Source of the DNA: Candidatus Deferrimicrobiaceae bacterium
GTDB lineage: Bacteria > Desulfobacterota > Deferrimicrobia > Deferrimicrobiales > Deferrimicrobiaceae
Reading direction: 5' to 3'
Length of the DNA: 64,000 nt
NCBI GenBank assembly: GCA_963792415.1
Contig: CAWBVY010000001.1
Span: forward strand, 62,025 to 126,024
Shown: positions 3,575 to 62,848 of the stretch, piece by piece
Position numbering within the stretch: position 1 is the first letter of the stretch
Layout: each line of letters starts with the position of its first letter
Made by a program: the position numbers and the translations under genes
Notes under the pieces: generated by a model
The model's input: only the letters and a program-made list of their open reading frames with translations
What the model was told of the DNA's origin: nothing
The model's database searches: none

Positions 3575-4453
<879 letters not shown>

Positions 4454-4481
4454 CGTTCCCTCCCGGTGAAAGTGATAGGGA

Positions 4482-4511
4482 TAGTTATCATCCGGCGGGA
4501 GGGGTTGTCAA
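4482..4511 (-). promoter_or_regulatory. Candidate sigma70 promoter for glyQS: perfect -35 TTGACA and a weak -10.
   Basis: On the minus strand, TTGACA (forward 4506-4511) is followed 17-18 nt later by ATAACT/TAACTA, about 25 nt upstream of the glyQ GTG. The -10 element is poor. Confidence 0.2.
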
Positions 4512-4552
4512 GCCAAATCATTGAAAAATTGAGGGGTTATAGCACTCGAAGG

Positions 4553-5287
4553 TCATTTCTTGCCCAGGCTCCGGAGACGCTTGCCCAAGCAATACTCGAC
4601 ATATCCTGGGATAACCGTCCGTAATTCCTCGGCAATCACAACAGGAATCCGGAGTCGACCCCGCCCCGTGGTCTTCCCCGCCTGCAGGGCGCGCCATGTC
4701 TTCACGGCGCCGAGGGAGAGGGGGACCCCCCCCAGGGGGTTGCAGGCTCCGCACAGGACCCCCCCCTCTGCATCGAGAAAGCGGTACGACCGACCCTCCT
4801 TCTCCCTGCATCTCCGGCACCCGGAGAGGTCGGGCCCCCACCCGGCGATGACGAGGAATTCGGCCTCGGCCCTTCGGGCGGCCTCCGGCGGCGACTCCCC
4901 GTCCGCGATCGAACGCAACCCCCGCAGAAGGACCTCGAACGCCCGCGGCTTCCCCCCCCCCTGTGGAAAAAGCTCCGACGCGATCTCGAGCAGGTGGTCC
5001 GCGTGTCGCACGCGTTCCCAATCCTCCACGATCCCCCAGAAACTCCGGTTCACGGAGGCGGAGGAAAGGACGGCCATCCGCCCCGTATGCTGCGTCCACG
5101 CAATGTCGAGGAGGACGTACCGCTGCAGGGCGCCGCCGAACCGTTTCCGGCTGCGCCACGCGGATTTTCCGACGGTCACGAGAACTCCGGCGTCCCGGGT
5201 GAAGAAGGTGAGGCGTCGGTCGGCCTCCCCGAGGTCGATGGCGCGGGCGAGGAATGCGGGAGAGGAGTGGAAGGAGGGCCGGATCAC
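4553..5287 (-). CDS. recO: DNA repair protein RecO
   Basis: OB-fold N-terminus (…AFLARAIDLGEADRRLTFFTRDAGVLVTVGKSAWRSRKRFGGALQ…) and a C-terminal zinc motif (CRRC…CGAC). The start is placed at a GTG that overlaps the rodZ-like stop (GTGA), by alignment to E. coli RecO. The longer ORF-table start is an R-rich extension. Confidence 0.8.
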   Translation of the reverse strand: MIRPSFHSSPAFLARAIDLGEADRRLTFFTRDAGVLVTVGKSAWRSRKRFGGALQRYVLLDIAWTQHTGRMAVLSSASVNRSFWGIVEDWERVRHADHLLEIASELFPQGGGKPRAFEVLLRGLRSIADGESPPEAARRAEAEFLVIAGWGPDLSGCRRCREKEGRSYRFLDAEGGVLCGACNPLGGVPLSLGAVKTWRALQAGKTTGRGRLRIPVVIAEELRTVIPGYVEYCLGKRLRSLGKK

Positions 5288-6043
5288 TGGCCGAAGGTGA
5301 TCTTCTGGACCTGCCCCCGTTCTCCGAACGGCGGCAGCCGCCGGCCGTTCAGCGTTCCCGTGACGCCTCCCGCGTTGCCGAGTTTCAGGGTGATCCGTTT
5401 CCCGGCGTGGATGCTGATCTTGTCGCCGGCGTACAGCATCACATCGATCGGGTCGCCGTCGTCGAAGCTGTACATCACCCACGCGAGCTCGCTCGCCTCG
5501 AGGAACAGCTGGAAGGGGCCGACGAGGGGGCCGGAGTCGCCCACCGCCGTCACCGACGACGCAGGTTCCGCCGGAGCCGGCGGGACCTGCGTCGGTGGAA
5601 CGGCCGGCGCCGTCGTGTTATCGACCCCTGAAGGGAGGGCGACCGCCGGCGGGGAAGGAACCGCGACGACCGCGGGGGGCGGCGACGGCAACGGACGGCG
5701 CTCGGTGTGGAGGGACACCCAGGCGAGGATCAGTCCGACAAGAAGAACCGCCCCGGCGGCAACGGTGTAGGTCGCCCGGCGGCTCCCCCGCTCCCGCTCC
5801 CGCTCCACCCACCCGAACCGAAGCTGCGCGGCCATTTCGCTGTCGTCACGGATCCCGATCGACTGCTCGTACTCGGCGAGAACGGCCCCCGGATCCTCGG
5901 AGAGGTATTTGGCGTAACGCGCGGATGAAGCCGGTGGAGAACACGCGCTCCGGGAAATCCCGGAAGTCCCCTTCCTCGATCCCCGCGAGATACCGGCGAC
6001 TGATCCGAAGCTCGGTGGAAACCTGGTCGATCGTCTTCCCCAT
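5284..6043 (-). CDS. rodZ: RodZ-like protein (N-terminal XRE-type HTH, TM helix, C-terminal DUF4115), interrupted by an apparent 1-nt frameshift near 5913-5918.
   Basis: The HTH (MGKTIDQVSTELRISRRYLAGIEEGDFRDFPERVFSTGFIRA…) starts at ATG 6041-6043. After FIRA the frame decays. The +1 frame continues …YAKYLSEDPGAVLAEYEQS…MAAQLRFGW…, a TM helix and DUF4115 (…DPIDVMLYAGDKISIHAGKRITLKLGNAGGVTGTLNGRRL…). Confidence 0.7.
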
Positions 6044-6087
6044 CCTCTCGCGGCGTTCCTTCCAGGAGGAACCGGCGTATCCCGGCC

Positions 6088-6843
6088 TCATCGCTTCCCC
6101 GGTCCGAGCAGCGTCACGTAGGACGCCGCCTGTTTTCTTTCTTCGGGATCGCTCGATACCGTGAGAACCTTGTCGAACGCCTTCAACGCATCCTCCGGCC
6201 GCGAGAGGCGGAGCCAGGCGCGCCCCAGTGCCATCCAGCCCGGGGAGTAGTCGGGAAGGACCTCCACGCAGCGGGTGAGGACGGACGCCGCGTCGGCCCA
6301 CCTTCCCTGTCCGCCGAGGACCCCGGAGAGTGCGATATAGGCCGGTGCGTACCGGTCGTTCGCCCGCAACGCCCGCCGGTAGGCACCCTCCGCGTTCGCG
6401 GGATCCCCTTTGGCGCGATACGCCTCGCCGAGATTGAAATACGCCCGTTCCGGGGTCTTGTACATCACGTTCGCCGCGGCCGCCTCGAACTCTGGGATCG
6501 CCTTGTCCCACTCCTTGCGCTCCGCGAGGACGATGCCGAGGTTGTTCCGCGCCTCGGCGTAATCCGACTTCATGGAAATCGCCCGGCGGAGATGCTCCTC
6601 GGCCTTCGACAGATCGCCGCGCGCCTGGTAAGTGAGGCCGAGAACCATCTCCACTTCCGCGTTCTCCGGATCGAGTTCCGATGCCTTCGTCAGCTCCTGC
6701 ATCGCCATCGGCAGGTTCCGCTGGTCGAGATAGGTCACGCCCATCCGCATCCGCGCATCGGCTTCCTGCTTCCGATTCGCGGAGTTCCCGGCGCACCCCG
6801 CGAGGATCGCCGCGAAGAGGCATACCAAGGAGAGGAACGGCAT
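6088..6843 (-). CDS. TPR-repeat lipoprotein (PilF/TadD-like)
   Basis: Lipoprotein signal MPFLSLVCLFAAILAGCAG (lipobox LAGC) followed by TPR repeats. Only the C-terminal 251 aa of the 547-aa table ORF look like protein; the upstream part is R-rich junk. Confidence 0.75.
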   Translation of the reverse strand: MPFLSLVCLFAAILAGCAGNSANRKQEADARMRMGVTYLDQRNLPMAMQELTKASELDPENAEVEMVLGLTYQARGDLSKAEEHLRRAISMKSDYAEARNNLGIVLAERKEWDKAIPEFEAAAANVMYKTPERAYFNLGEAYRAKGDPANAEGAYRRALRANDRYAPAYIALSGVLGGQGRWADAASVLTRCVEVLPDYSPGWMALGRAWLRLSRPEDALKAFDKVLTVSSDPEERKQAASYVTLLGPGKR

Positions 6844-6857
6844 TTCCCGGGGACGGA

Positions 6858-7715
6858 TCACAGGTATTTCCCGATCAGAAGGTCGAGGCGCCGGCGTGCC
6901 GCCGGCGGGATCCGCTTCCGGTCCGTGATGATCGCGTATTTCAGCGCCTCGCCGCACCGGCACCCCCCCGGAAGAGGCAAGCGGAGGGCGATCTCCCGGA
7001 CGATCCTCTTCGAGTTCTCCACGTTGCGGCGCAGGAGGTCGAGAATCGCCTCGATCGACACATCGTCCTGCGTCTCGTGCCAGCAGTCGTAGTCGGTCGC
7101 CAGCGCGAGCGTCGCGTAGCAGATCTCCGCTTCGCGGGCGAGTTTCGCCTCCGGCATGTTCGTCATCCCGATGACATCGACCCCCCATTTCCTGTAGATT
7201 CGGGATTCGGCGCGCGTGGAGAAGGCCGGCCCCTCCATGCAAAGGTACGCCCCCCCCCGATGGACGCGCCGTACGACCTTGCGCGCCGCCGCGTACGCCA
7301 CGGCGGAGAGGTCCGGGCAGACCGGGTCGGCGAAGGCGACGTGCCCCGCCACGCCGTCGCTGAAGAAGGTGTTCGGCCGCAGCCGCGTGTGATCGAAGAA
7401 CTGGTCGACGACGACGATGTCTCCCGGCCGGATCCGTTCCTTCATGCTGCCGACGGCCGAGATCGAAAGGATCGCCCCGGCGCCGATCTTCTTCATCGCG
7501 TAGATGTTTGCGCGGTAGTTGATCTGCGAGGGGGAGAACCGGTGTCCCTTCCCGTGGCGGGGCAGGAACGCGAGCGTCCTCCCCTCGAGCTCGCCCACGG
7601 TGATCGCGTCGGACGGCGCGCCGAAGGGCGTCCGGACGACGACCTGCCGGACGTTCTTCATCCCCTCCATCTCGTAGAGGCCGGAACCGCCGATGATGCC
7701 AAGGATGCCCGTCAT
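6858..7715 (-). CDS. mtnP: S-methyl-5'-thioadenosine phosphorylase
   Basis: 285 aa with MTAP/PNP-family conservation (GIIGGSGLY…, MTNMPEAKLAREAEICYATLALATDYDCW). Confidence 0.9.
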   Translation of the reverse strand: MTGILGIIGGSGLYEMEGMKNVRQVVVRTPFGAPSDAITVGELEGRTLAFLPRHGKGHRFSPSQINYRANIYAMKKIGAGAILSISAVGSMKERIRPGDIVVVDQFFDHTRLRPNTFFSDGVAGHVAFADPVCPDLSAVAYAAARKVVRRVHRGGAYLCMEGPAFSTRAESRIYRKWGVDVIGMTNMPEAKLAREAEICYATLALATDYDCWHETQDDVSIEAILDLLRRNVENSKRIVREIALRLPLPGGCRCGEALKYAIITDRKRIPPAARRRLDLLIGKYL

Positions 7716-7776: not shown

Positions 7777-8835
7777 TCAACCCCTTTTTCCCCCGGCAGC
7801 GATCCGCAATTGCCCGCAGGCGGCGCGGATATCGGCGCCCCTCCGCTCGCGGGTGATCGTCTGGACCCCTCCCGCGATGAGAATCTTCCGGAACCGGATC
7901 AGCGTTTCCGCCTCCGGCGCCCGGTGCGGCGACCCTTCGTGCGGGTTGCAGGAGATGAGGTTGACCTTGATCCGCCCGCCGCGGAACAGGCGGGAGAGCG
8001 CAAGGGCGTCCTCGGCCGAATCGTTCACGCCCGCCAGCAGGACATACTCCGCGGACACCTTTCGCCCGCTTTGCAATGGTATCCGCCGCATCGCGGCGAC
8101 GACCTCCTTCAGCGGATATTTCCGGTTGACCGGCATCAGGAGGGAACGGAGATCGTCCCGGGCGGCGTTGATCGAGACCGCGAAGCTGACGGGGAATCGC
8201 AGCGCGAGCGGGAGCATCTCCGGAACGATCCCCGCCGTGGAGACGGTGACCCGCTTGCCGGAGATGCCGAACCCGAACTGCGAAAGGAGGATCCCGATCG
8301 CCCGCGAAACTTCCGGAACGTTCAGCAGCGGCTCCCCCATTCCCATGAAGACGACGTTCGACAGGCGCTCCCCCCGTTCCGCAAGTCGCTTCGCGGCGAA
8401 ACAGGCCTGCTGGACGATCTCGGCGGAGGTCATGTTCCTCTGGAAGCCGGCTTCGCCGGTCGCGCAGAAGCCGCACAGGAGCGGGCACCCCACCTGGGAG
8501 GAGATGCACAAGGTGCGCCGCCCCTCGTCCGGGATCAGGACGCTTTCGACCGCCTCGCCGTCCGCGAGCCGGAAGAGGTACTTCTCCGTCCCGTCGGAGG
8601 AGATCTCGACGCGCTCCGCCGTGAAACCCGAAATGCGGCACGACGCCGCGAGGATTCCCCGCAGCTCCTTCGACAGGTCCGTCATCGCGGCGAAGTCGCC
8701 GGCATGTTTCTGATAGATCCAGCGGAAGAGCTGCCGGGCGCGGTACCGCTCCTTCCCCCACCGGGATAGGAACTCCTCCAGCTCGGGGAGCGTCATCCCC
8801 TTCAGATCCATCCGTTCGGCACTCACGCCCGTCAT
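7777..8835 (-). CDS. rlmN: 23S rRNA (adenine2503-C2)-methyltransferase RlmN (radical SAM)
   Basis: 352 aa with CPLLCGFCATG radical-SAM motif and an RlmN/Cfr family profile. Confidence 0.9.
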   Translation of the reverse strand: MTGVSAERMDLKGMTLPELEEFLSRWGKERYRARQLFRWIYQKHAGDFAAMTDLSKELRGILAASCRISGFTAERVEISSDGTEKYLFRLADGEAVESVLIPDEGRRTLCISSQVGCPLLCGFCATGEAGFQRNMTSAEIVQQACFAAKRLAERGERLSNVVFMGMGEPLLNVPEVSRAIGILLSQFGFGISGKRVTVSTAGIVPEMLPLALRFPVSFAVSINAARDDLRSLLMPVNRKYPLKEVVAAMRRIPLQSGRKVSAEYVLLAGVNDSAEDALALSRLFRGGRIKVNLISCNPHEGSPHRAPEAETLIRFRKILIAGGVQTITRERRGADIRAACGQLRIAAGGKRG

Positions 8836-9205: not shown

Positions 9206-11491
<2,286 letters not shown>

Positions 11492-47705: not shown

Positions 47706-48614
47706 CTACCCCCTCACCGCCGAAAGTCCAGGATCTCTCCGCTGTGCACCAACTCGATCGCAGGGCCGCCGTCGGGGAGAAAACGGAGCGCCCCGGCCGT
47801 GTCGAGCCCGTCCGCGGTTCCCCACCCCTCGCCCGCCCTGCCGCCGAAGGAGGACGCGCCGCCCCCGGAGGAAGTCGCGTCGGTCCCACCCGTCGCGGAG
47901 CGAGGCGAACCCGCCCCCGAGGAATTCCGCGTACCGCGCCCCGAACGCGTCGAGCAGCCGGGCGAGGAGGTCGACCCGGCGGAACGCCCTCCCCGCGCAG
48001 ATCCGGAGGGACGTCGCCGTCCCGCGGAGATCCGGCGGGAAATCGGCCTCTTCCACGTTCACGTTGAGCCCCACGCCGATCACGACGTGGCGCACGCCGT
48101 CCGGGTCGGACGCCATCTCCGCGAGGATTCCCGCCGCCTTCCTTCCACCGCAATACAGGTCGTTCGGCCACTTGAGGGTCGCGGGAACGCCGACCGCCTC
48201 GACCGCGTCGGCGAGGGCGACGCCGGCCACGAGGGCGAGCGTCGGCGCTTCGACGGTCGGGACGGAAGGCCGAAGCAGCAGGGAAACGTACAGGTTCTTC
48301 CCCGCGGGAGACAACCACCGGCGGCCCATCCGTCCCCGGCCCGCGGTCTGCGCGTCGGCGACGACGACGGTCCCGTGCGGTGCACCGCTTTCCGCCATCT
48401 CCATCGCGACGCGGTTCGTGCTGTCGGTCACGTCGAGCAGAACAAAGTCGGTCCACGGCCCGCCAGAGCGGAGCCGCGCTCGGAGGTCCGCTTCGGAGAT
48501 CTGGCCCCCCGTTTCCCTTTCCCGCCCCGCGATCCGCACCCCCTCGGTAGCATCCCCGGAGGCGAAGCTCCCCTGCCGTTCCTCCAGGATACGGTGGAGC
48601 TTCTCCCCCATCAC
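47706..48614 (-). CDS. birA: Biotin--[acetyl-CoA-carboxylase] ligase BirA, with an apparent 1-nt frameshift in the C-terminal SH3-like domain (around 47830-47836)
   Basis: The catalytic domain is intact (…GRGRMGRRW…KWPNDLY…). After …[14 protein letters not shown] the listed frame becomes R-rich junk. The +1 frame gives a typical BirA end: [38 protein letters not shown]. Confidence 0.75.
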
Positions 48615-48779
48615 CCTCCCGCCGCGTCGAATCCGGAATTACACCTTCATTCTATTAAGCATTTCAGGGGTGTGGAAATCAACCGAAACATGTAGAAAAA
48701 GACAGCAAAGTTTCACGCCACCGGCCCAACCGATACGACATATATTATCGGGAATACAAAGGGAAGGGACCGAAAAACC

Positions 48780-49440
48780 GACTTGAACAAGGGTACTGGA
48801 CACCACCGGGGGACCAGGGACCGTCGAAGAGGATGCTGATCGAACTGCTCTCGGTCTTGTCGAGGGTCTCCCCGCCGCATACTTCGCGATCGTCTGCCTC
48901 GGTTTCTGGAAGAGCTTCGTCCAGACCGGCAAGTGGACCTCCCTGCTCGTGGAAAAATGGATGGGTATTGATGTGCCGAATTGGCTCCACTGGTTTCGGA
49001 GGGACTCTGATCATCCTCCTGCTCGTGTTCCGCCGGGAGTCGCGCCGGCTCTCCCTGCATCCGTGGGACTGGATCGTCGCCCTCGGGGGTTCCTTCACCG
49101 TCCTGCTGGTCCGTCCCGCGGCGGCGACGGTCGTCCCGGAGTTTCTCGGCGTCGCGCTCATACTCGCGGGAACCGCGTTCGAGATCTATGCGAAGATCGT
49201 TCTCGGGAGAAGTTTCGGAATCGTGGCCGCAGACCGGGGGATCGTCGTGGAGGGACCGTACCGCATCGTCCGGCACCCCATCTACTTCGCGCGGAGAGGG
49301 CCACCCTGCTGGTCTGGTTGAGGGTATCATTGGCGTCCGTACACGGAGGTGTTCCGGAGTTCATCCCCGTGACCAATTGCCTGTTCATCAGCATCCTTGC
49401 GCCTCTCTGCACGAGGATGACGGACTTTTCCCACAGCCCG
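48780..49440 (+). pseudogene. Degraded isoprenylcysteine carboxyl methyltransferase / phospholipid methyltransferase-family gene, with at least 2 frameshifts
   Basis: The family motif …VVEGPYRIVRHPIYFA… and TM segments are in frame 1 (48833-49321). The N-terminal TM segments (…GLVEGLPAAYFAIVCLGFWKSFVQTGKW…) and the continuation after RHPIY are in other frames. It sits in a lower-GC patch. Confidence 0.5.
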
Positions 49441-49762
49441 TAGCGCCAGCAGACTGTAAGACGTGGGAGCAACCCAGGAATGACATCGGCGGTCAGGATC
49501 ACCCACGAATGGAGTATCCTGACATGGGCCAATTCTGCTTCTCCAGTGTTCCCCGAAGTACTTAATAGAAATTCACCGCGCGATTCATATTTCTTATGCC
49601 GTTCGGACCACGCCATGCACATCGTCATCTATTTTTTCCAGATTTCGAGGATCCTGTAGTGCCCCGAGGAGCGGATTCTCTCGGAGGACGCCGCGTAGTC
49701 CCCCCCGGGACCCATATCGCGGGCGCGTCCGCTTTCGCCTGATCCCGGGGTCTTCTGACCCT

Positions 49763-50637
49763 TCACGAAGGGGCGACGAACACGAAGGGGTACAGGACTT
49801 CCACCGTGCGTCCCGCCGGCGGCTCGAAGGTCCAGCGACGGACCTTGGCGAGGACGACGTTCACGAACGCGGTGTCGGAGAAGGACCCGTCGGCCGGTTC
49901 GGCGCCCTGGACCTTCCCCGAGGGGTCGATGCGGAAGCGAACGAGCAGCTTCCCTCCAAGGTCGGGGTTTCGCCGGATCGCGTCGGCGTAGACCCCCTCC
50001 AGTTCGGGCAGGCGGTCGCGCACCCGTTTCCGGATCATCTCGCGGATCCAGGCGGGGATCGGCTCCCCGGCGGTGTCCCCGGCCCCCCCGAACATCATCG
50101 ACGCCTCGGTCTCCTTCCCGAACCCCACGCCGGGTCTGCCGGACGCGCGCACGCGGGCCTCAAGTTCCTCAAGGTGCTTCCCCAGGGCCGCGGTCCTCTC
50201 GGGTGCGACGGCGGGGGCGAAATCCCCCGGCCTGGCGGGGCCATCGTTGGTCCAGTGGCGCACCGGGATCCCCCCCGCCTTCCCCTCCCGGCGGGTGACC
50301 GGCGCCTCGGGCACATTGGCCATCCCCGCGTCGAGTTTCTCGAGCCACCGCCTTGCGGCGGGGGGCGCCTTCGGGGCGGGACGGGTCGAGGCCGGCCTGT
50401 CGGAGGACGCAGGAAAGAGTCGGGCCGGGCCGACGACGCGACCGGAGGCGGAGGCGCCGGCAGCTCCTCCGGAAGCTCCGACATCGGCAAATCGGTCAAT
50501 TCCACAACCACCGGCGGGGAGAACCTCATCGTGGGAAACAGCGGCGATATGGCGGACCCCATGACGAACACCACGAGGTGGACCGCGACGGAGAGGATCA
50601 TCATCTTCCGGATGATCCGCTCCTGACGGCGCGACAT
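49763..50637 (-). CDS. TonB-family energy transducer (TM anchor, Pro-rich spacer, TonB_C), with an apparent frameshift in the spacer (around 50395-50410)
   Basis: The N-frame reads MSRRQERIIRKMMILSVAVHLVVFV…PPVVVELTDLPMSELPEELPAPPPPVAS…. The C-frame reads …RRWLEKLDAGMANVPEAPV…LPELEGVYADAIRRNPDLGGKLLVRFRIDPSGKV…VLYPFVFV. Start alternatives are 50664 and 50679. Confidence 0.65.
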
Positions 50638-50686
50638 CCCGTTGATCTCCTGGTAGATGTTCATCTGGAAACCGTTCATCGTCGGT

Positions 50687-51991
50687 TCACAGCTCCGTGA
50701 AGTAGTCCCTGCACGCCCGCTCCACCAATTCGTTGTCCAGCCGGGAGGGAACCCCCTCGTACCGGCAGATCTCCACGACACGGCTCAGCACGTCGTTCGG
50801 GTGGCAGGCGCTCAAGCGAACCCCGCGCCTCGGGTGCTCCTCGTCCAGCAGATGGCGGATGACCTCCGGACGGAACGGAAGCCCCACGCGCTCGCACACC
50901 TGGCGGCAGATCCCGATGTACTCCTCCTCCCCCAGGTAGTCGATCTTGATCTTGTACCCGATCCGTCGCAGGAACGCCTCGTCGGCCAGCTCCCGCGGAG
51001 CGATGTTCGTGGAGAAGAGGATGATCTGGTCGAAGGGGATCTCGAACTTCTTCCCGTTCTGCAGTGTCAGGAAGTCGCGCGCCTTTTCCAGGGGGACGAT
51101 CCAGCGATTCAGCAAGTCGAAGGGGCGGACCAGCTGCCGCCCGAGGTCGTCGATCAGGAAGACCCCCCCGTTGGCCTTCACCTGGAGGGGCGCCTCGTAG
51201 AACTTGGCGATCGCGTCGAAGCTCAGGTCGAGCATCGCCAGCGTCAACTCCCCGCCGGAGACGATCACCGGGCGTTCGCACAGGACCCAGCGGCGGTCGT
51301 ACTCCGTCCGTTCGGTGAGGACGGCCTGCGCCGGGTCCATCGGCTCTCCGAGATCGACGCGGGAGTGGTTCACGGGGTCGAACACGCGGATGACCTGGTT
51401 GTCCACGCAGATGGCGTGGGGGATGAAGACGTTCCCGCTCATGACCTTCGCCAGCCGCTCGGCGATGAACGTCTTGCCGTTCCCGGAGGGCCCGTAGAGG
51501 AAGATGGAGCGCCCGGAGTTGACCGCGGGGCCCAGGCGTTCCAGCAGGCCGGGGGTCAGGATGACCCCCTTGAAGGCGCGGTCCATCGACTCGCGGTGGA
51601 CCGACATCTTCCGGACCGTCTGCTTCCTCGCCACCTCCGTGTACTGCGCGAGGGTGACGGGGGCCGCGCCGAAGTACCCGGAGAGCTGGAGGTACTCCCT
51701 GGCCCTCTCCCGTCCGAGGTCGGTGAGGGCGTGCGTGTACGCGGCGCGGATGTCCCCGCCCTTCTTCACCTCGGCCAGCCGCTCCTTTTTCATGAAATCC
51801 ATCACGTCGTTCGATACGCTGACGGGAAGCGCAAGCTGCTCGGAGATGGACGACAAAGACATCACGCCGCCGAAGTAGAGGGTCTTGCAGGCGAGCTCCA
51901 CGAGGAACCCGAGGGAGAGCCCGGTCTCCTCGACGGTCTTCGGCGACCTGGGCACTACGGACACGCGGATCTTGCGGGTCTCTTCAGTCAA
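50687..51991 (-). CDS. AAA+ superfamily ATPase of unassigned family
   Basis: Walker A GPSGNGKTFIAERLA, Walker-B-like FLIDDLG and a sensor region. TTG start with an AAGGAG RBS 6 nt upstream. The 80-aa N-terminal extension in the table ORF is R-rich and spurious. Confidence 0.65.
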   Translation of the reverse strand: MTEETRKIRVSVVPRSPKTVEETGLSLGFLVELACKTLYFGGVMSLSSISEQLALPVSVSNDVMDFMKKERLAEVKKGGDIRAAYTHALTDLGRERAREYLQLSGYFGAAPVTLAQYTEVARKQTVRKMSVHRESMDRAFKGVILTPGLLERLGPAVNSGRSIFLYGPSGNGKTFIAERLAKVMSGNVFIPHAICVDNQVIRVFDPVNHSRVDLGEPMDPAQAVLTERTEYDRRWVLCERPVIVSGGELTLAMLDLSFDAIAKFYEAPLQVKANGGVFLIDDLGRQLVRPFDLLNRWIVPLEKARDFLTLQNGKKFEIPFDQIILFSTNIAPRELADEAFLRRIGYKIKIDYLGEEEYIGICRQVCERVGLPFRPEVIRHLLDEEHPRRGVRLSACHPNDVLSRVVEICRYEGVPSRLDNELVERACRDYFTEL

Positions 51992-52282: not shown

Positions 52283-55200
52283 TCATGGTCCCTTCCCTTC
52301 CTTCGCCTTCGCCGTCATCGTCTCTTCCAGGAGCGCCTGCGCGGTCTCCAGCCGCTTCCGGATCGGAACCGCGAGGTCCGCGGGCCCCTTCTCGTCCTCG
52401 AGCCGGTCCAGCGCGCCGGCGTACCGGTCGAGGGACCGTTCGTAGAACGATCGCGCCCGATCCCGCAACGCCTCCTCGTATCCATCGCGGTCGTCCCCTT
52501 TCAGACCTTTCGGCCGCTGGGAGGCGAGGATCGCCTTCCCGTACTCCACGAGGAGATCGCCGGATAGAAGAGAGGCCTGGAGCGCCACCTCGAGAGGGGC
52601 CTCGCTCTCCGCCTTTTCGAAGTCGCCGAGAGCCCGCCGGAAGAACCGGTCCTTGATGGCGAGACTCTTCTCGAGGGGGACACGGAGGGGCGTCTTGCGG
52701 AACTGTTCGGCCCAGTTCTCCCCGACGGCGATGCGAACCTTCCCCGCCAATTCCGCGAACTCCTCGGGCGCCTCCGCTTCCACGCCCGCGTCCGCTTTTC
52801 GCAGCCCTTCCTCCATCAGGCGGATCGACGCCTTCGTCTCCCCCCGCCGCCAGCCGGCCAGCCCCGTGTACAAGGTGGCGTACGTCCACTTCCAGCGTGG
52901 GTCCGCGTACCGCGCGCGATAGGCATTGAAGCGCTTTTCCGCCGCCCCGGGAGGGCCGTGCTCTTCCGCGAGGCGCGCGGCGTGGAAGAGGAACCGCGGC
53001 GCGGCCTCGCCCTTCGGGAACCTCTCCGCCACGGCCTCGTAGAGTTCCCCGGCCTCGGCGAACTCCCCCTTCTCCTCGAAGAGGGGGCCGACCACGCTCG
53101 CCACCTCCACGGTTTCCTCCCTTCGGGGAAACTCTTTCCGGAAACGGAGGCCGGAACGGATGGCCCCTTCCGGATCCCCCCCCTTTGCGTACAACCGCAT
53201 CGCCCGGAGCAGGTAGATCGGGACCTCCGGCGCCCCGGGGAAACGGATGGAGACCTCCTCGAGCACGGCCGCCGCGCCCGACAGGTCTCCCGCGGCCTCC
53301 TTTCCACCCGCCTCCTTCAGGGAGGAGAGGAGATAGAGATCCTTCGCCCGGGCGCCTGCGCCGGCCCCGACCGAGGGGTCCGAAAGGACGACCGAAGACC
53401 CGCTCCTCGCGGCGACCACATTCCCCTCGAAGAGGGCGGACTCGGCCAGAACCAGGCGAGCCTGGGCGGTCTGCGCCGGGGTGGCGTACCGGCTCCTCTC
53501 GACTTCCGCCGCTACGCGCCGCGCGCGATCATTCTCCCGGGCCGACAGGAACGCGCTCGATGCCCGAAGCCCGAGGGAGGCCGACTTTTCGGAGGGATGT
53601 TCCTCGAGAAGAAGCAGGATGGCGTATTCCGCGCCCCCGGCGGGCGTCTCCTTCCTCTCGTACCCGGCGATCATCGTCTCCGCGTACAGGACGGCCGCCC
53701 GCTCCCCGGTGGCGTCCGACCTCCGCTCTCCCACCAGTTTTTCGAGGAGCAGCACCCCGCCTTCCCGGTCCCCCGAGCCGAGGAGAGCGATGGCCCACTT
53801 CAGGCGAAGTTCCCCATCCCCGTCCGACCGGTCATCCCCCTTCACCAGGAAATACTCCCTCGTCAATGCGGCGGACGAGGAAAGCGCCGAGCGTTCCCCG
53901 GAGCGGATCCCCTCGTCGAATTTTTTCCCGGCGAGGGTCCTGAGCATTGCAGCCAGTTCCTTTGCGGTCTTCTCTCCGACCGGGGCCGGCTGCGACCGTG
54001 CCCAGGCCGAATCCGGTCCGTACTTCCCGCGCAGGGTCAGGGCGCGGTCGAGCGCCTCCCTTTCCCGCCCGACCCGCAGGAGCGACTCCACCGTCTCCAT
54101 TTCGAGGGCCGCAGCGTTCGCGTCCGACGGGAATCGCCGGGCCGCGACGTCGCGCACTTCCGCCGCCCGCAAGGCCTCGCCGCGTTTCTCCTCGGCCTCC
54201 CAGAGGGCGGCGAGGAGGACCTTCCCGCCGCACGTCCCGGCGTTCACGGGGGGGTACGCGTCCAGCCGTTCCAGGGGCGCCTCCCTCCATGCGCGGACCG
54301 AAAGGGAGACGACCTCCCTTTCGAAGGGCGACGGGACACCGCAGGGGAACGAGGGATCGGAAAGGGGTCGGGACAATTCCCGGAGCGCCCCGCCGGCATC
54401 CCCGGACTGGAACCGGACCCAGGCCAGCATGTACCTGGCGACGGCGGAAGCGTCCGGGTTCCCGGCATCCGAGGCCGCGCGGTACCGTGAGATCGCCGCC
54501 GCGGTATCCCCGGCCAGGAGCGCCTCGTGCCCGAGGCGGACTCCGATCACGGCGGAGAGCGGAGAGGCGGGGTACTTCTGGAGGTACTCCCGCGCGGCGG
54601 ACCCGGCGCCCGGGTCTTTCACGGCCAGCCCCAGGGCCGCTCGCAGGTAGAGTCCCTCCTCCCGTCTCGCCCCGGAAACCCCTTCCCGCGGGAGGAGCGG
54701 GAGAACGCGCGCGATCAACTCCTTCTCCTTCTCGTCGGCTTCCGTGCCCGGATACCGTGTCCACCGGTCCCTTCCCTCGGAAAGAACGGAGCCGATCCCG
54801 ATGGCGACGTCGGGCGCGTCCGCCGGCGCGAGGCGGTCGCCGGTCAGGAGGGAAACCGCGCGTCCGAGGGCGGCGAGGGATTCCCCGTGGGCCGGCTCTC
54901 CCGGCTCCAACCGCAGCCGGCGGGCCTGTCCGATCAGGGCGTCCGCCAGCTGACGGTCGACCACGGCAAGAAGGGCGAGCAACTCCGGCTTCCTCCGCTC
55001 CCAGGCGGCGGCCCGCTCCCTTTCCTCCAGGGTTCGCACGACCGGAAGGAGCGCGGTCACGCGGCCGTCGGCGTACGCGATCGATTCCCGCATCACATGG
55101 TCGAGGGGATCCTCCGCCGGCTCCTGCTTCTTCCTCAGGATGTCGAAGTACTGCTTCGTGAAATCCCGCGTTTCGGCGGCCATGGACCGGATCTTGTCCA

Positions 55201-56656
55201 GCTCGTTCAGGAAGAGTCCCACGTCCTTCAGGAGTCCGGGGGCGGTCCCGTCCCTGCCGGTCTCGATGGTGGCTACGGTCGCATCCCGCCGCTCCCGGAT
55301 CCGCTCCCGGAGAAGGTGGATCTCTTCCTGGCTCTTTTCCAGGCGCGTGAGGCGGCGGTATCGCTGGATCGGGTGGCCGAGGTTCTGGAGGGTATCGAGC
55401 GTGGCGGCCATCCGCTCCACCAGGCGGTCGACCTCGATGCCGTCCAGGGACACCTCCTCGATCCTCCGGACGATCTCCGCGATCTCCTCCGCGGTGAGGA
55501 ACCGGAGACCCTCGGGGGACGGCGTGTCCGCCGCTGCCAGGGAGACCGTCCGGTCGGCAAAGAGCATGCCGACCAGGAGTTCCACCACCTCGGCGCGCGC
55601 CGACGCGTCCGGCCCGGGCTCCCGCCAGGAGAGTTCCTGCCGGAGGGCCCGCAGCATCTCCATCTGAAGCCGGAGGGACTCGACGGTTTCGGAACGGCCC
55701 GACGGCTCGGAGGAAGGAGGCGACGGCACGGACAATGCGTCTTCCAGCTCCTTTCCTGCCCGGGTCAGGCGGTCGACCGCCGTCTCGTCGCGCCCGCTTT
55801 CCCTTGCGAGCCCCCCGAGAAGGAGGAGGAACCGGACCCGGTCCTCGAGGGGCCGCCCGGCGATCATCTCGGCCGGCAGATGGTCGAGGGCATGCACGGA
55901 ATTGTCCCCGGCGGCGGCCAGGCCGATCCGGTCCAGCGGGTTCTTCTCTTTCCACAGCAGGGCCTCGAACAGTGGCACTGCCTCGGGGCCGCGTCCGGCC
56001 GCAAGCAACACTTCCGCCCGCGATCTCGATGCCCTCGCCGCAAGAAAGTCGCTCCATTCGCTCCTCCCGGCCTCTTCTTCCACGCGTTGGAAGAGGTTCA
56101 GCGCCGTCGAGGTTTCCCTCCCCTCGGAGGCGATCTGGCCGAGGGAGTACAGGGCGAGGAGCCGGTACGGCTCTTCCGTTCCGACCTGGGCCAGGATGGC
56201 GGAGGCATCCCCCAGCCGTCCCCGGATCCGCCGCAGCCCCGTGCCGTAGGAATACAGGATCAGGGGCGTCCGGATCCCGCTGCGGATGGCGGTCTCGCAG
56301 ACCGCGACGAGGCGTTCGGGATCGTCGTATCGTCCCTGCGCGCTGACGACTTCATCGAAGAGCGGCGCCGCCGCCGTCGCCGGGAACACGCCCAGGCCGA
56401 CCCTCCGTTCGAGAAGCGATGCCGCTTCCGCAAGGAGCCCCAGGGACATGTATCCCTTGAAAAGGGAGCGGGTGCCGTCGATGGTCACCGCGTCGGACGC
56501 CTCGAGACGTGCCATTTCGGTGAGGGAGACGCCGGCACTCGCCGGGAACGGGATGGCAATAACCGAAAACAGGATCGCGCAGGCGAGGAAAGAGAGGAAG
56601 GGTCGTCCGGCGGCTATGGGGGAGAGGGTCGTTTCACGTTTCGAATTGGATTTCAT
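52283..56656 (-). CDS. Very large (1457 aa) secreted TPR/alpha-solenoid protein
   Basis: Signal peptide (…FLACAILFSVIAIPFPASAG). Continuous non-biased alpha-helical repeat sequence over 4.4 kb. GAGG RBS. Confidence 0.7.
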   Translation of the reverse strand: MKSNSKRETTLSPIAAGRPFLSFLACAILFSVIAIPFPASAGVSLTEMARLEASDAVTIDGTRSLFKGYMSLGLLAEAASLLERRVGLGVFPATAAAPLFDEVVSAQGRYDDPERLVAVCETAIRSGIRTPLILYSYGTGLRRIRGRLGDASAILAQVGTEEPYRLLALYSLGQIASEGRETSTALNLFQRVEEEAGRSEWSDFLAARASRSRAEVLLAAGRGPEAVPLFEALLWKEKNPLDRIGLAAAGDNSVHALDHLPAEMIAGRPLEDRVRFLLLLGGLARESGRDETAVDRLTRAGKELEDALSVPSPPSSEPSGRSETVESLRLQMEMLRALRQELSWREPGPDASARAEVVELLVGMLFADRTVSLAAADTPSPEGLRFLTAEEIAEIVRRIEEVSLDGIEVDRLVERMAATLDTLQNLGHPIQRYRRLTRLEKSQEEIHLLRERIRERRDATVATIETGRDGTAPGLLKDVGLFLNELDKIRSMAAETRDFTKQYFDILRKKQEPAEDPLDHVMRESIAYADGRVTALLPVVRTLEERERAAAWERRKPELLALLAVVDRQLADALIGQARRLRLEPGEPAHGESLAALGRAVSLLTGDRLAPADAPDVAIGIGSVLSEGRDRWTRYPGTEADEKEKELIARVLPLLPREGVSGARREEGLYLRAALGLAVKDPGAGSAAREYLQKYPASPLSAVIGVRLGHEALLAGDTAAAISRYRAASDAGNPDASAVARYMLAWVRFQSGDAGGALRELSRPLSDPSFPCGVPSPFEREVVSLSVRAWREAPLERLDAYPPVNAGTCGGKVLLAALWEAEEKRGEALRAAEVRDVAARRFPSDANAAALEMETVESLLRVGREREALDRALTLRGKYGPDSAWARSQPAPVGEKTAKELAAMLRTLAGKKFDEGIRSGERSALSSSAALTREYFLVKGDDRSDGDGELRLKWAIALLGSGDREGGVLLLEKLVGERRSDATGERAAVLYAETMIAGYERKETPAGGAEYAILLLLEEHPSEKSASLGLRASSAFLSARENDRARRVAAEVERSRYATPAQTAQARLVLAESALFEGNVVAARSGSSVVLSDPSVGAGAGARAKDLYLLSSLKEAGGKEAAGDLSGAAAVLEEVSIRFPGAPEVPIYLLRAMRLYAKGGDPEGAIRSGLRFRKEFPRREETVEVASVVGPLFEEKGEFAEAGELYEAVAERFPKGEAAPRFLFHAARLAEEHGPPGAAEKRFNAYRARYADPRWKWTYATLYTGLAGWRRGETKASIRLMEEGLRKADAGVEAEAPEEFAELAGKVRIAVGENWAEQFRKTPLRVPLEKSLAIKDRFFRRALGDFEKAESEAPLEVALQASLLSGDLLVEYGKAILASQRPKGLKGDDRDGYEEALRDRARSFYERSLDRYAGALDRLEDEKGPADLAVPIRKRLETAQALLEETMTAKAKEGKGP

Positions 56657-60442: not shown

Positions 60443-61639
60443 TCACACGCCTCTCCGCCGGAAAAGGTTGTCCAGGATCCCCTTCTTCTTCTCCGGGACC
60501 GCCTTCTTCGGCGCCGGCCCTTCCAGCAGCTCCGCCATCCGGTCGAAGCTTTTGGTGACCTCCTTGTCCGGGGCGACTTCCGAGAGGAGCTTCCCGCGGT
60601 TGATGGAGGAGATCACGGTCGGGTAGTCGTTGGGAACGGAAAAGAAGACCGGGGTGTTCATGATCCCCTCGATGCTCTCCTTCGGGATCTCGTCGTTCGG
60701 AAGGTAGCGGCTGAGGAGGAGCCGCACCCGCTCGTCGCGCAGCCCGATCCGCCCGAAGAGCTCCAGGCACTTCTGGGTGTTCTTCAGGGAAGGGAGGTTC
60801 AGCAGGGACACGAGCAGGACGATGTCGGACATCTCCAGGGCCGTCAGCGTCCGCTCGTCGAACTGGTGCGGCGTATCCACGATAATGTAGTCGAACATCG
60901 ACCGCAGCGTCGAGAGGACCTCCCGCACCTGGGCCGGGGAGATCTGCTCCCCGTCCTCGATGGTCGGCGGGTCGGCCAGGACGTAGACCCCGCTGGCGTG
61001 CCGGACGAGGAGCGTGTGCAGGAAGTCGTAGTCGGCCTTCTCCGCGTTCTTCGCCAGGTCCAGGATGGAATAGGACGAGTTCACGTTGAAGAACATCGTG
61101 ACGTCGCCGTGGGAGAGCACGAGGTCGACCACGGCGACCTTTTTCCCCGTAAGCCGGACCAGGGCGTCCGCGAGGTTCACGGCGATCGTCGTCGTCCCGT
61201 TCCCCCCCTTGTTGCTGAAGACGGAGAGGATCTTCCCCCCGCGGCCCCCCGATTCCTTCCGGGTCGCCTTGAGCTTGGACGCCTTCTCCGCCGCCGCCCG
61301 GAGGTCGATCTCCTTGACCGGCTTGCAGAGGTAATCGTGCGCACCGGCGCGGATCGTCCGCAGGATGAGGTCGGAGTCGGTCCGGTCGGAGAGGGCGACG
61401 AGATACAGGAACGGGAAATCCTTCGCCATCGTGGAGATCGACTCGATCGCCGGTTCGGGGGTGGGGCCCAGCCCGATGATCACCATTTCGGGAAGGTGCA
61501 TCCGGATGATGTCGATGCCGGTCTTGACGGAGTGCGTCTTCCAGCGCACCTCGATGGCGCCGATCCGCTTGCTCAGGATGTCGATCTGCCGGATCGCCTC
61601 CTGGTCCGTCTCGATGATCAGGCAACTGATGCGGTTCAT
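60443..61639 (-). CDS. tadZ: Tad/Flp pilus assembly protein TadZ/CpaE (receiver-like N-domain plus MinD/ParA-type ATPase)
   Basis: 398 aa. The ParA-like P-loop is [14 protein letters not shown]. Confidence 0.85.
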
Positions 61640-61646
61640 TCCTCTC

Positions 61647-61988
61647 CTATTCCACCAGGGAGATGACTTTCACTTCCGTACCCGTGAGGGGACCGCCGCC
61701 GCCGCTGGAGGATCCGCCGAAGGCAGATCCGGGGATGTATCTTCCCGTCACGTAACCGTCTCCCCCTTGCCTCCCCACACCTTCGATCCAGAACCCGGCG
61801 AGAGTGTACCCGACCTGGACGGAGGCGCCCGTTCCCTGCGTTCCACCGGCGCCCCCACCGACGATGGGAATGCTCGGATCATAGATGACGACCCGAACGA
61901 CCCGGGGGGATCCCATTTCGTGGGTATTGGTAGCGTAGTCGCTCGGAAATGTTTGGCTGTAACCTTGCGCATTTGCATCATCGAGCAA
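61647..61988 (-). CDS. Gly-rich hypothetical protein (113 aa), possibly the frameshifted C-terminal continuation of the TadG-like gene
   Basis: Its frame is open from directly after the TadG-like stop (…GIRGFAR*/KVYEALLDDANAQGY…). No ATG start; TTG only. Confidence 0.35.
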   Translation of the reverse strand: MLDDANAQGYSQTFPSDYATNTHEMGSPRVVRVVIYDPSIPIVGGGAGGTQGTGASVQVGYTLAGFWIEGVGRQGGDGYVTGRYIPGSAFGGSSSGGGGPLTGTEVKVISLVE

Positions 61989-62826
61989 AGCCTCGTATAC
62001 CTTGAACGATCGGCCCCATAGCGTTCCCGGTCATCAGGTCGACGGGCAAGGACATGTCGATCGGGAAACACCCGCTGCTGATGAAAGTCCTCAGGTCGTT
62101 CGCGCCCTGAAACGTCTCTCCTCCCACGTTCCCCTGCATGAGGAAGAAATGCCCCGACGACTGTTGCCCGGAGGGGGAGTTATTGTCGGCGCTTGGAGAT
62201 CCCACCTTCAAGGTGATGGCAGCCCCGGGACACAAACCGACGCCCCCTGTGCAATCCTTGTAGATCGTCTCCCCGGGGGCGGGGGAACCGTCGTACTCGC
62301 CGTCGGGAGTCCCGTCACGGTTCGTTCCGTATGCCGGATCGTCAGCCCACGGGTAGGGGATCGCGAACGGCTTGATGCAGTTCACATTCGTCGGAGGGCC
62401 GGCCACCGCGGCCTGCGCCACGGCGCGCGCGGTAATCACTCGATTCGCCATCCCGAGAATCCGTGCGAAAAAGAGATTCGCGTTGCGGGAAGTGACCACT
62501 TCGATCCGGTCCAGCGAGGGAAAGGAGACGGCCACCTCGCCCGCGGGGTCAAGCCGCGTCCGCACCACCACGTCCCGGGACGCGTAATCCCTCGCGCGGG
62601 CGTCGGCTATGCCCCGGATGCTCGAATCGTTCCAGTCCCCGGTCGTAAAAGCGGAAGCGCCGGCCAACGCACCCGCATCGGCGCTGCGCTGGAGTTCGTG
62701 GCGAACGGAATACATGTGGCCCACGTCGATCCCGAGGGCCGCAAGGCCCAGGAGGACGAAAATGGCCAGAGCCACAAAAACCAGTATCTGCCCCTTTTCG
62801 TTTCTTTTCATCGTCGTACCCCTCAT
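61978..62826 (-). CDS. TadE/TadG-like pilus assembly protein (Tad_N domain)
   Basis: N-terminal MKRNEKGQILVFVALAIFVLLGLAALGIDVGHMY is the TadG N-domain. Confidence 0.7.
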   Translation of the reverse strand: MRGTTMKRNEKGQILVFVALAIFVLLGLAALGIDVGHMYSVRHELQRSADAGALAGASAFTTGDWNDSSIRGIADARARDYASRDVVVRTRLDPAGEVAVSFPSLDRIEVVTSRNANLFFARILGMANRVITARAVAQAAVAGPPTNVNCIKPFAIPYPWADDPAYGTNRDGTPDGEYDGSPAPGETIYKDCTGGVGLCPGAAITLKVGSPSADNNSPSGQQSSGHFFLMQGNVGGETFQGANDLRTFISSGCFPIDMSLPVDLMTGNAMGPIVQGIRGFAR

Positions 62827-62848
62827 ATTCCCCTGTTCCCGCGTCGGC

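Follow-up and report, generated by a model that had tools for sequence, protein, structure and literature searches.

A 64,000-nucleotide stretch of DNA from a Candidatus Deferrimicrobiaceae bacterium (contig CAWBVY010000001.1 of assembly GCA_963792415.1; hereafter the window) carries, between the biotin-protein ligase gene birA and a tonB-like gene, a methyltransferase gene of the ICMT/PEMT family that lies in three pieces, with two foreign pieces lodged between them. Both foreign pieces were traced to one two-gene module, consisting of an SHC-repeat-like gene and a DUF362-family gene, on a related contig, and the neighbouring birA and tonB-like genes are frame-broken as well. A sequence-only reading of this patch (positions 48615-49762) had taken it for a degraded, decaying insertion acquired horizontally, which is not supported as a biological feature. 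We think instead that in the mosaic at least two structural alleles, from strains occurring together, were probably merged into one chimeric and under-polished consensus. Relatives were collected through BirA, in a metagenome scan (80 loci, 68-91% identity) and in a genome scan of Candidatus Deferrimicrobium and Deferrimicrobiaceae metagenome-assembled genomes (MAGs; 80-89% identity); individual loci bear L numbers.

Two pieces of one module in a broken methyltransferase gene

A check of synteny turned up fourteen relatives in which tonB or island genes are followed by the methyltransferase (MTase) and then by birA, mostly as tonB -> <- MTase birA ->, and in which the methyltransferase next to birA has an intact, highly conserved core of 200-201 codons. 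The relatives' protein (200-217 amino acids, aa) scores above both curated cut-offs of the superfamily, PF04140 (ICMT) and PF04191 (PEMT); in the intact relative L040 it reached 34.7 bits for ICMT (cut-off 24) and 39.0 bits for PEMT (cut-off 25). It also has the multi-helix membrane layout of the superfamily and the C-terminal GPYRxVRHPxY...EE..L motif region, and by these marks it is a bona fide ICMT/PEMT-family member.

The copy in the window fares differently. Its longest open reading frame (ORF) contains GPYRIVRHPIYF and covers the first half of the domain only, with an ICMT score of 17.2 bits (cut-off 24); the raw frames gave Pfam scores of 17.2 and 15.9 bits, both sub-threshold, whereas splicing out the window-specific insertions raised the ICMT match to 29.3 bits over profile positions 3-94 of 95. 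This gain, together with the lesions seen against relatives, bears out the earlier description of the gene as a multiply frameshifted ICMT/PEMT methyltransferase. Lesions were defined by alignment to seven intact relatives and by a survey of all high-scoring segment pairs. Small window-specific insertions lie in or near the gene at 48787 (+2), 48948 (+1), 49005 (+2), 49698 (+7) and 49711 (+3), the first of which breaks an N-terminal extension used by relatives; single bases are deleted at 48868 and 49750, and six extra bases at 49658 make an in-frame TAG. Two further changes are large, namely the gain of 37/38 bp at 48953-48990 and the exchange of about 56-75 bp for about 317 bp (49290-49606). 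No uninterrupted frame is left, the frame changing at 48868, 48948-49005, 49290, 49607, 49698 and 49750, with the TAG at about 49658. Unlike the proteins of its superfamily, the window copy thus cannot be expressed as a protein: at least eight of its lesions disrupt the frame, it has an in-frame TAG, and other sequence stands in place of 56-75 bp of the domain.

The larger insert resisted identification at the level of protein families: no frame of the inserts had a Pfam match, and word-indexed protein searches with both plausible frames came back empty. The full HMMER search with the stop-free minus-strand frame returned one match, the protein P0001 (E=1.7e-8), which is encoded on L082, a 44.8-kb ENA contig. 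At the nucleotide level, window 49607->49291 is 87.8% identical to L082 8361-8697. The protein similarity jumps between frames: HSWVAPTSYSLLALRAVGKVRHPRAE is common to P0001 and one minus frame at 26 of 26 residues, and ARMLMNRQLVTG...GTPPCTDAN matches P0001 in the adjacent frame. The intact homologue on L074 confirms these switches and places the SHC fragment of the window out of frame at least three times at points where L082 keeps the frame. P0001 itself stays sub-threshold against the Pfam families SQHop_cyclase_C/Prenyltrans, at 22.0 bits, or 20.5 bits for an extended version, against a cut-off of 26.1. SHC-type repeat motifs are visible by eye in L074, an observation that we treat as a lead only.

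For the smaller insert, 20 of the 38 bp (window 48975->48956) are 100% identical to L082 9272-9291, inside a DUF362-family gene (PF04015, 37.9 bits, cut-off 24), and the 38-bp piece is absent from every methyltransferase-bearing relative. Both inserts come from the one SHC+DUF362 module of L082; they keep the donor's order and its orientation relative to tonB, and they are interleaved with methyltransferase pieces that stand in correct order. The relation to L082 extends beyond the patch, since the opening 2059 bp of L082 and window 51819->49763 are 92.7% identical over an AAA-ATPase gene and a tonB that is intact in L082. The homology check on the fragments has therefore given them a source, in the SHC-repeat-like gene and the DUF362 gene of this contig. 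None of the 160 related loci has the mosaic junctions, and no further copy of either insert was found in the window or in these loci.

The sequence-only reading had listed the minus-strand ORF 49158-49628 among fragments of no recognizable family. As far as Pfam goes, this stands, the scores being sub-threshold; the relation to P0001 goes against it, and the ORF is no gene. As read, it had no homologue among 5.8 billion clusters, and HMMER shows a frame-scrambled fragment: its 5' two-thirds (49628->49291) belong to the SHC-repeat-like fragment, and its 3' third is antisense methyltransferase.

Other identities were considered for the segment of about 317 bp. Its similarity to the gene piece whose place it takes is at chance level; it has replaced that piece and does not derive from it by divergence. 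A plus frame noticed by eye raised the C-terminus of another ICMT-family allele as a candidate, which was rejected as it did not extend the Pfam match and had no homologue. A minus-strand frame stop-free for 156 codons and a codon-like periodicity in guanine-plus-cytosine (GC) content might speak for a mobile element (a miniature inverted-repeat transposable element, MITE, or a remnant of an insertion sequence, IS) or for a functional small gene or RNA at 49290-49762, but the SHC gene fragment explains both, and we hold such an element, gene or RNA to be extremely unlikely. The hallmarks of IS elements and MITEs are missing, with no terminal inverted repeats or target duplications at 49290/49607 or 48953/48990, and a mobile element at 49290-49762 was rejected for want of repeats and of any other copy in the window or the 160 loci. 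More generally, no integrase, tRNA gene, terminal repeats or second copies were found at the patch, where repeats are only short and of chance quality, and no frame of the patch has a Pfam mobility domain. An inverted 17/20 match between 48650-48669 and 49551-49570 was judged to be chance (estimated p about 0.1) and lies inside the SHC coding fragment. No Rfam family reached threshold; the sole match listed, to radC (cut-off 40), lies outside the patch and, at 20.4 bits and E=0.57, was put down to chance.

Table 1 Features of the patch, its neighbours and the related loci
Feature	Position	Strand	Remarks
birA (biotin-protein ligase)	47706..48614	-	frame-broken by an extra base at about 47831-47835; true C-terminus in another frame, ending at about 47714
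Lobe 1, divergent intergenic region	48615..48832		putative birA and methyltransferase promoter/operator; 50.9% GC
birA core promoter, predicted	48647..48684	-	GGTTGATTTCCA...TGCTTAATAGAATGA; -35 TTGATT, 18-nt spacer, extended -10 TGnTTAATA
Perfect palindrome CCGATA-N10-TATCGG	48730..48751		upstream of the methyltransferase; candidate operator
Methyltransferase, 5' segment	48833..48952	+	MLIELLSVLSRV...KWTSLL; -1 at 48868
Foreign piece from DUF362-family gene	48953..48990	-	38 bp, 44.7% GC; encodes ...HINTHP...
Methyltransferase, middle segment	48991..49290	+	ends at catalytic-region motif GPYRIVRHPIYFA; +2 at 49005; partial Pfam ICMT/PEMT match
Junction k-mer	across 49290		CATCTACTTCGCGCGGAGAGGGCCACC
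Lobe 2 core, SHC-repeat-like gene fragment	49291..49606	-	316 bp, 55.4% GC; antisense to the methyltransferase; corresponds to P0001 residues 116-231, approximately
Junction k-mer	across 49607		GCCGTTCGGACCACGCCATGCACATCGTC
Methyltransferase, 3' segment	49607..49762	+	...HIVIYFFQISRIL / EERILSEDAA / YRGRVRFRLIPG...; +6 (in-frame TAG), +7, +3, -1
tonB-like gene	49763..50781	-	one base missing at 50411 (GACGCA-GGAAAG vs GACGCGCGGAAAG)
521-aa membrane protein gene	L011 334-1899; L082 2056-3620; L083 2324-3883; L037 771-2330		

The tonB-birA interval in relatives

At least five modular versions of the tonB-birA interval occur among close relatives. Its genes run TonB-MTase-BirA in L040 and L089, a common allele; TonB-BirA, with the methyltransferase deleted at differing end-points, in L008, L033 and L085; and TonB-521-aa membrane protein-GT2-(MTase)-BirA in L011 and L037, while a larger version has GT87 (L083, L026) and another has SHC+DUF362 (L082, L074). 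The cargo of these other alleles is made up of low-GC cell-envelope genes. Judged from these arrangements, the interval is a hypervariable, modular flexible island in Candidatus Deferrimicrobium populations. As the SHC+DUF362 module is an allele of the same interval in L082 and L074, the donor of the scraps in the window is an alternative allele of this very locus. Flexible islands with cell-envelope glycosyltransferase genes differ between co-occurring strains of one species. The tonB-birA interval resembles them in carrying low-GC genes for GT2, GT87 and membrane proteins, and gene remnants, between conserved flanks; it differs in that the window showed neither an integrase nor a tRNA target nor flanking repeats, and holds only the minimal allele and two scraps.

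These islands often have gene remnants and a low GC content (45-60%), which comes to 54.7% in the L082 island. Among the remnants are a 3' scrap of GT2 in L011 and an additional, incomplete copy of the methyltransferase in L083; L082 has the birA promoter in duplicate. Clean deletions of the methyltransferase, with different end-points, were noted at L008 1080-1087 and L033 4055-4086, where scraps of its 3' end and/or its promoter are retained; they indicate that the gene was lost recurrently and independently. In several relatives tonB is followed by the gene of a multi-pass membrane protein of 521 aa that has no Pfam match (47-55% GC); in L011 its start overlaps the tonB stop.

Consensus error, recombination or decay

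Damage in the window reaches both neighbours of the methyltransferase, a point that the sequence-only reading had missed. In birA, the window has CTCGCCCGCCC where relatives have CTC-CCCGCCC or CTC-GCCGCCC, a gain of one base with the last approximately 45 codons frameshifted; 56 of 92 relatives support this as window-specific, and three-frame translation agrees. L001, a JGI short-read contig that is 99% identical and encodes the same CoaX protein, differs in birA by exactly one base, the extra one, which it lacks, and its BirA reads through. Once repaired, BirA matches Pfam BPL_LplA_LipB at 82.5 bits. The tonB-like gene has its N-terminal membrane helix and Pro-rich linker in one frame and its TonB_C domain in another; relatives, including the 92.7%-identical L082 (TonB_C 29.4 bits), have an intact tonB. 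The lesion sites in both genes are polymorphic among relatives.

The kind of change speaks against slow decay. Bacterial pseudogene decay is deletion-biased and substitution-dominated. The ratio of non-synonymous to synonymous substitution rates (dN/dS) is 0.15-0.45 on the window branch of the methyltransferase, compared with 0.18-0.29 on the intact L011 branch and 0.22-0.38 between pairs of intact genes, so the window branch carries no signal of relaxed selection. Relative to L082, the SHC fragment has 6.1% substitutions and the flanking genes have 7.2%. The same fragment has 21 one-base gaps in 349 alignment columns, all of them bases missing from the window; 15 of these lie in homopolymer context. 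Over the 2059 bp of flank there are 2 gaps. Indels and substitutions thus number 21 and 20 in the SHC fragment (about 1:1) versus 2 and 148 in the flanks (1:74). A ratio near 1:1 points to sequence or consensus error, or to one very recent event, and not to gradual decay. What the window shares with an ordinary pseudogene is that a dispensable gene, deleted in other lineages, has several frameshifts and a premature stop; it departs from one in its dN/dS, which is not raised, in its indel ratio of about 1:1, in having more insertions than deletions in the gene body, and in the damage to neighbouring essential genes.

The idea of a low-GC insertion that was acquired horizontally between birA and tonB and is slowly decaying there draws on a GC dip that is real, on a gene that is disrupted and on the low-GC cargo that the interval collects in relatives (47-55% in the 521-aa gene of L011, 54.7% in the L082 island). 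However, relatives of 68-91% BirA identity carry the methyltransferase and the intergenic region intact and compositionally identical, dN/dS is not relaxed, and the lesions are insertion-rich and indel-dominated. With the region found in fourteen relatives with intact genes and similar composition, which is what the sequence-only reading had itself named as refuting its proposal, no relaxed selection and an indel ratio of about 1:1 against 1:74, we consider this explanation very unlikely.

Over the 16.5 kb covered by at least three relatives, every window-specific frameshifting indel falls within 47831-50411, on which ground we rejected uniform assembly error across the contig. The lesions are confined to a structurally polymorphic locus, and the foreign segments are colinear with an alternative allele, as would be looked for in an artefact. 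By comparison with the L074 homologue, L082 has lost the frame near the 3' end of the SHC gene while the window keeps it there, and the two sequences are both noisy in island DNA and clean in their flanks. In the L082 island the tonB stop is lost (2052-2060), fusing tonB to the next gene, and the SHC-like gene is frameshifted (around 8700). The 521-aa gene and GT87 of L082 are split (about 3100-3440 and 4571-7468).

The available records are compatible with a long-read origin. The contig names of L082 (contig_45770) and of the nearest named MAGs are in the style of Flye, and a contig of 0.2-1 Mb is recorded with the identical CoaX protein. An exact-protein look-up for independent copies of the broken products returned only two short contigs with CoaX on record. 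Among relatives, short-read contigs often break off within 100-400 bp upstream of birA, and L001 stops inside the gene itself, as is expected at a strain-variable locus. The MFD MAGs, the nearest named genomes, were made by Nanopore-only metaFlye assembly with one Medaka round, and microdiversity is named by their authors as a limiting factor (PMC12313526); Nanopore homopolymer indels are described in PMC9262707.

If this locus is a chimeric consensus, as we favour, reads from co-occurring strains with differing tonB-birA alleles would have been collapsed into one contig, and the source would probably be a long-read metagenome assembly. The methyltransferase allele would thereby have received two scraps of the SHC+DUF362 allele, colinear and in the same orientation, and the sequence of the window would here most likely not be the state of any living genome. 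Both the assembly or consensus error as cause and the long-read source are what we infer from these patterns. The window's one-directional, homopolymer-enriched one-base gaps, the damage at a polymorphic locus, the clean flanks and the noisy L082 island are all like the residual indel and consensus errors that long-read metagenome assemblies show where coverage is low or strains vary; inserts of 316 bp and 38 bp, on the other hand, exceed homopolymer error and require a chimeric consensus.

Several points weigh against this reading. It presumes a sequencing technology and a coverage by mixed strains. The order found in L082 (promoter region, SHC, DUF362) does not fit a simple two-haplotype alignment, and one would have to postulate a further allele, so far unseen, in which SHC+DUF362 lies between tonB and the methyltransferase; L074 comes close to it. 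The methyltransferase segments have mostly small insertions and the SHC segment has deletions only, an asymmetry that borderline support in a mixed pile-up might plausibly explain. L082 is itself noisy, and some of the 21 gaps may be its own errors. Finally, the methyltransferase is cleanly deleted in at least two lineages (L008 and L033) and absent in L085, and such natural loss would make a real pseudogene here unsurprising.

A real and very recent mosaic pseudogene, formed when recombination or repair copied two pieces of the SHC+DUF362 module into a dispensable methyltransferase, for example by microhomology-mediated template switching, is the main alternative; we judge it possible but doubtful. 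Some or all of the one-base indels, those in birA and tonB included, may on this account be sequencing noise from low coverage of the allele. It agrees with the recurrent loss of the gene (deletions in L008 and L033, absence from L085 and L037) and with a recombination hot spot that has left remnants in L011, L083 and L082. By our own reading, the right junction has imperfect microhomology, GCCxT...ATCGxCA, in the methyltransferase and in the SHC donor, and the 6.1% distance to L082 matches the genome-wide strain distance, as for a donor of the same population. Yet ordinary recombination would hardly yield two separate inserts that stem from one donor, preserve its order and orientation, and alternate with recipient pieces standing in their correct order, and there is no excess of substitutions, no relaxed selection, a broken birA, and junctions seen in none of the 160 loci. 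A single catastrophic repair of a break in the methyltransferase gene, with microhomology-mediated template switching onto the SHC+DUF362 module that copied two colinear pieces, and with error-prone indels over about 2.6 kb that include birA and tonB, would also yield a real mosaic, but we find it quite unlikely. A collapsed, strain-variable locus remains the explanation that we prefer.

Composition and the birA promoter region

The interval 48615-49762 has 58.3% GC against 66.4% in the whole window, which puts it among the lowest 0.4% of 1148-bp windows. The sliding-window check therefore upholds the dip described in the sequence-only reading, though not its figure of about 50% for the patch. 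The dip is real, is not a matter of chance and is not uniform. It forms two lobes, 48615-48832 (50.9% GC) and approximately 49300-49760 (56-57%, with its core at 49291-49606; 56.7% over 49322-49762), separated by sequence near background (48833-49321, 63.0%). A frame plot of GC at third codon positions (GC3) gave a plus-strand coding signal with two phase changes across 48860-49520.

Set beside the same region in relatives, the composition is not atypical: their methyltransferase genes have 57.6-62.7% GC and the upstream intergenic region 49-56%, against 63.5% in the methyltransferase-derived pieces of the window and 50.9% in its intergenic region. Only the 316-bp and 38-bp pieces are private to the window. 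Foreign DNA, as proposed for the patch as a whole, is thus confined to 49291-49606 and 48953-48990, to the exclusion of the methyltransferase and the intergenic region. The low GC would have ordinary causes, namely an AT-rich promoter region, a membrane-protein gene of about 60% GC in every relative and an island scrap of 55% GC.

Other low-GC stretches (52-57%) lie at 10400-11450, about 4350-4650 and 61620-62840 in the window, with no broken frames noticed. The first is inside an uninterrupted 743-codon ORF (9206-11437, minus strand); the last has no GC3 periodicity over 1.2 kb, although it has ORFs of 280-315 codons. ARAGORN made a single tRNA call in the window, an 86-nt tRNA-Gly(TCC) at 54392-54477 on the minus strand. 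Its length is unusual and it lies inside a minus-strand stretch scored as coding by GC3 (52291-56506), so the call may be a false positive.

Lobe 1 was not degraded DNA by the measure of its conservation, which marks it as a conserved promoter region. The 218-bp intergenic region is 94% identical in L002, 91% in L011 and 85% in L005, and the approximately 75 bp adjoining birA are 90-94% identical even in methyltransferase-less loci; in the alignment the promoter region is kept in 55 related loci. A single window-specific +1, at 48639, falls within the lobe. Over the 55 loci, methyltransferase-less ones included, the motif GTTGATTTCCA...TGCTTAATAG is nearly invariant, and a promoter consensus scan found 2 sites in the birA upstream region against 0.4 expected. 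With hexamers assigned by eye from conserved columns, the motif is probably a sigma-70 promoter of birA, and a regulatory site may overlap it. This 38-nt upstream motif is better conserved than the N-terminus of BirA. The palindrome CCGATA-N10-TATCGG is conserved in loci that have, or formerly had, the methyltransferase, including the methyltransferase-less L008 and L082 (22/24 positions in the latter), and may be an operator, as we read it from this distribution. At 7850-8009, directly before the SHC-like gene, L082 has a second, diverged birA/methyltransferase promoter region that includes the first codons of birA (ATGGGGGAG); within the L082 island, it seems, a promoter was duplicated or recruited.

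The patch serves first as a quality flag, in that three consecutive apparent pseudogenes, one of them the essential birA, are not to be taken at face value. The risk is to read a decaying foreign island into what the evidence suggests is a strain-variable locus that was collapsed. As a real structure, the mosaic would rank as a clustered, templated complex rearrangement that arose naturally in a bacterium, and would be of modest interest as such. The methyltransferase belongs to the known ICMT/PEMT family and the locus is an ordinary flexible island. For Candidatus Deferrimicrobium, the comparison describes a flexible island between tonB and birA, an ICMT/PEMT-family methyltransferase that has undergone recurrent loss, and a nearly invariant putative birA promoter.

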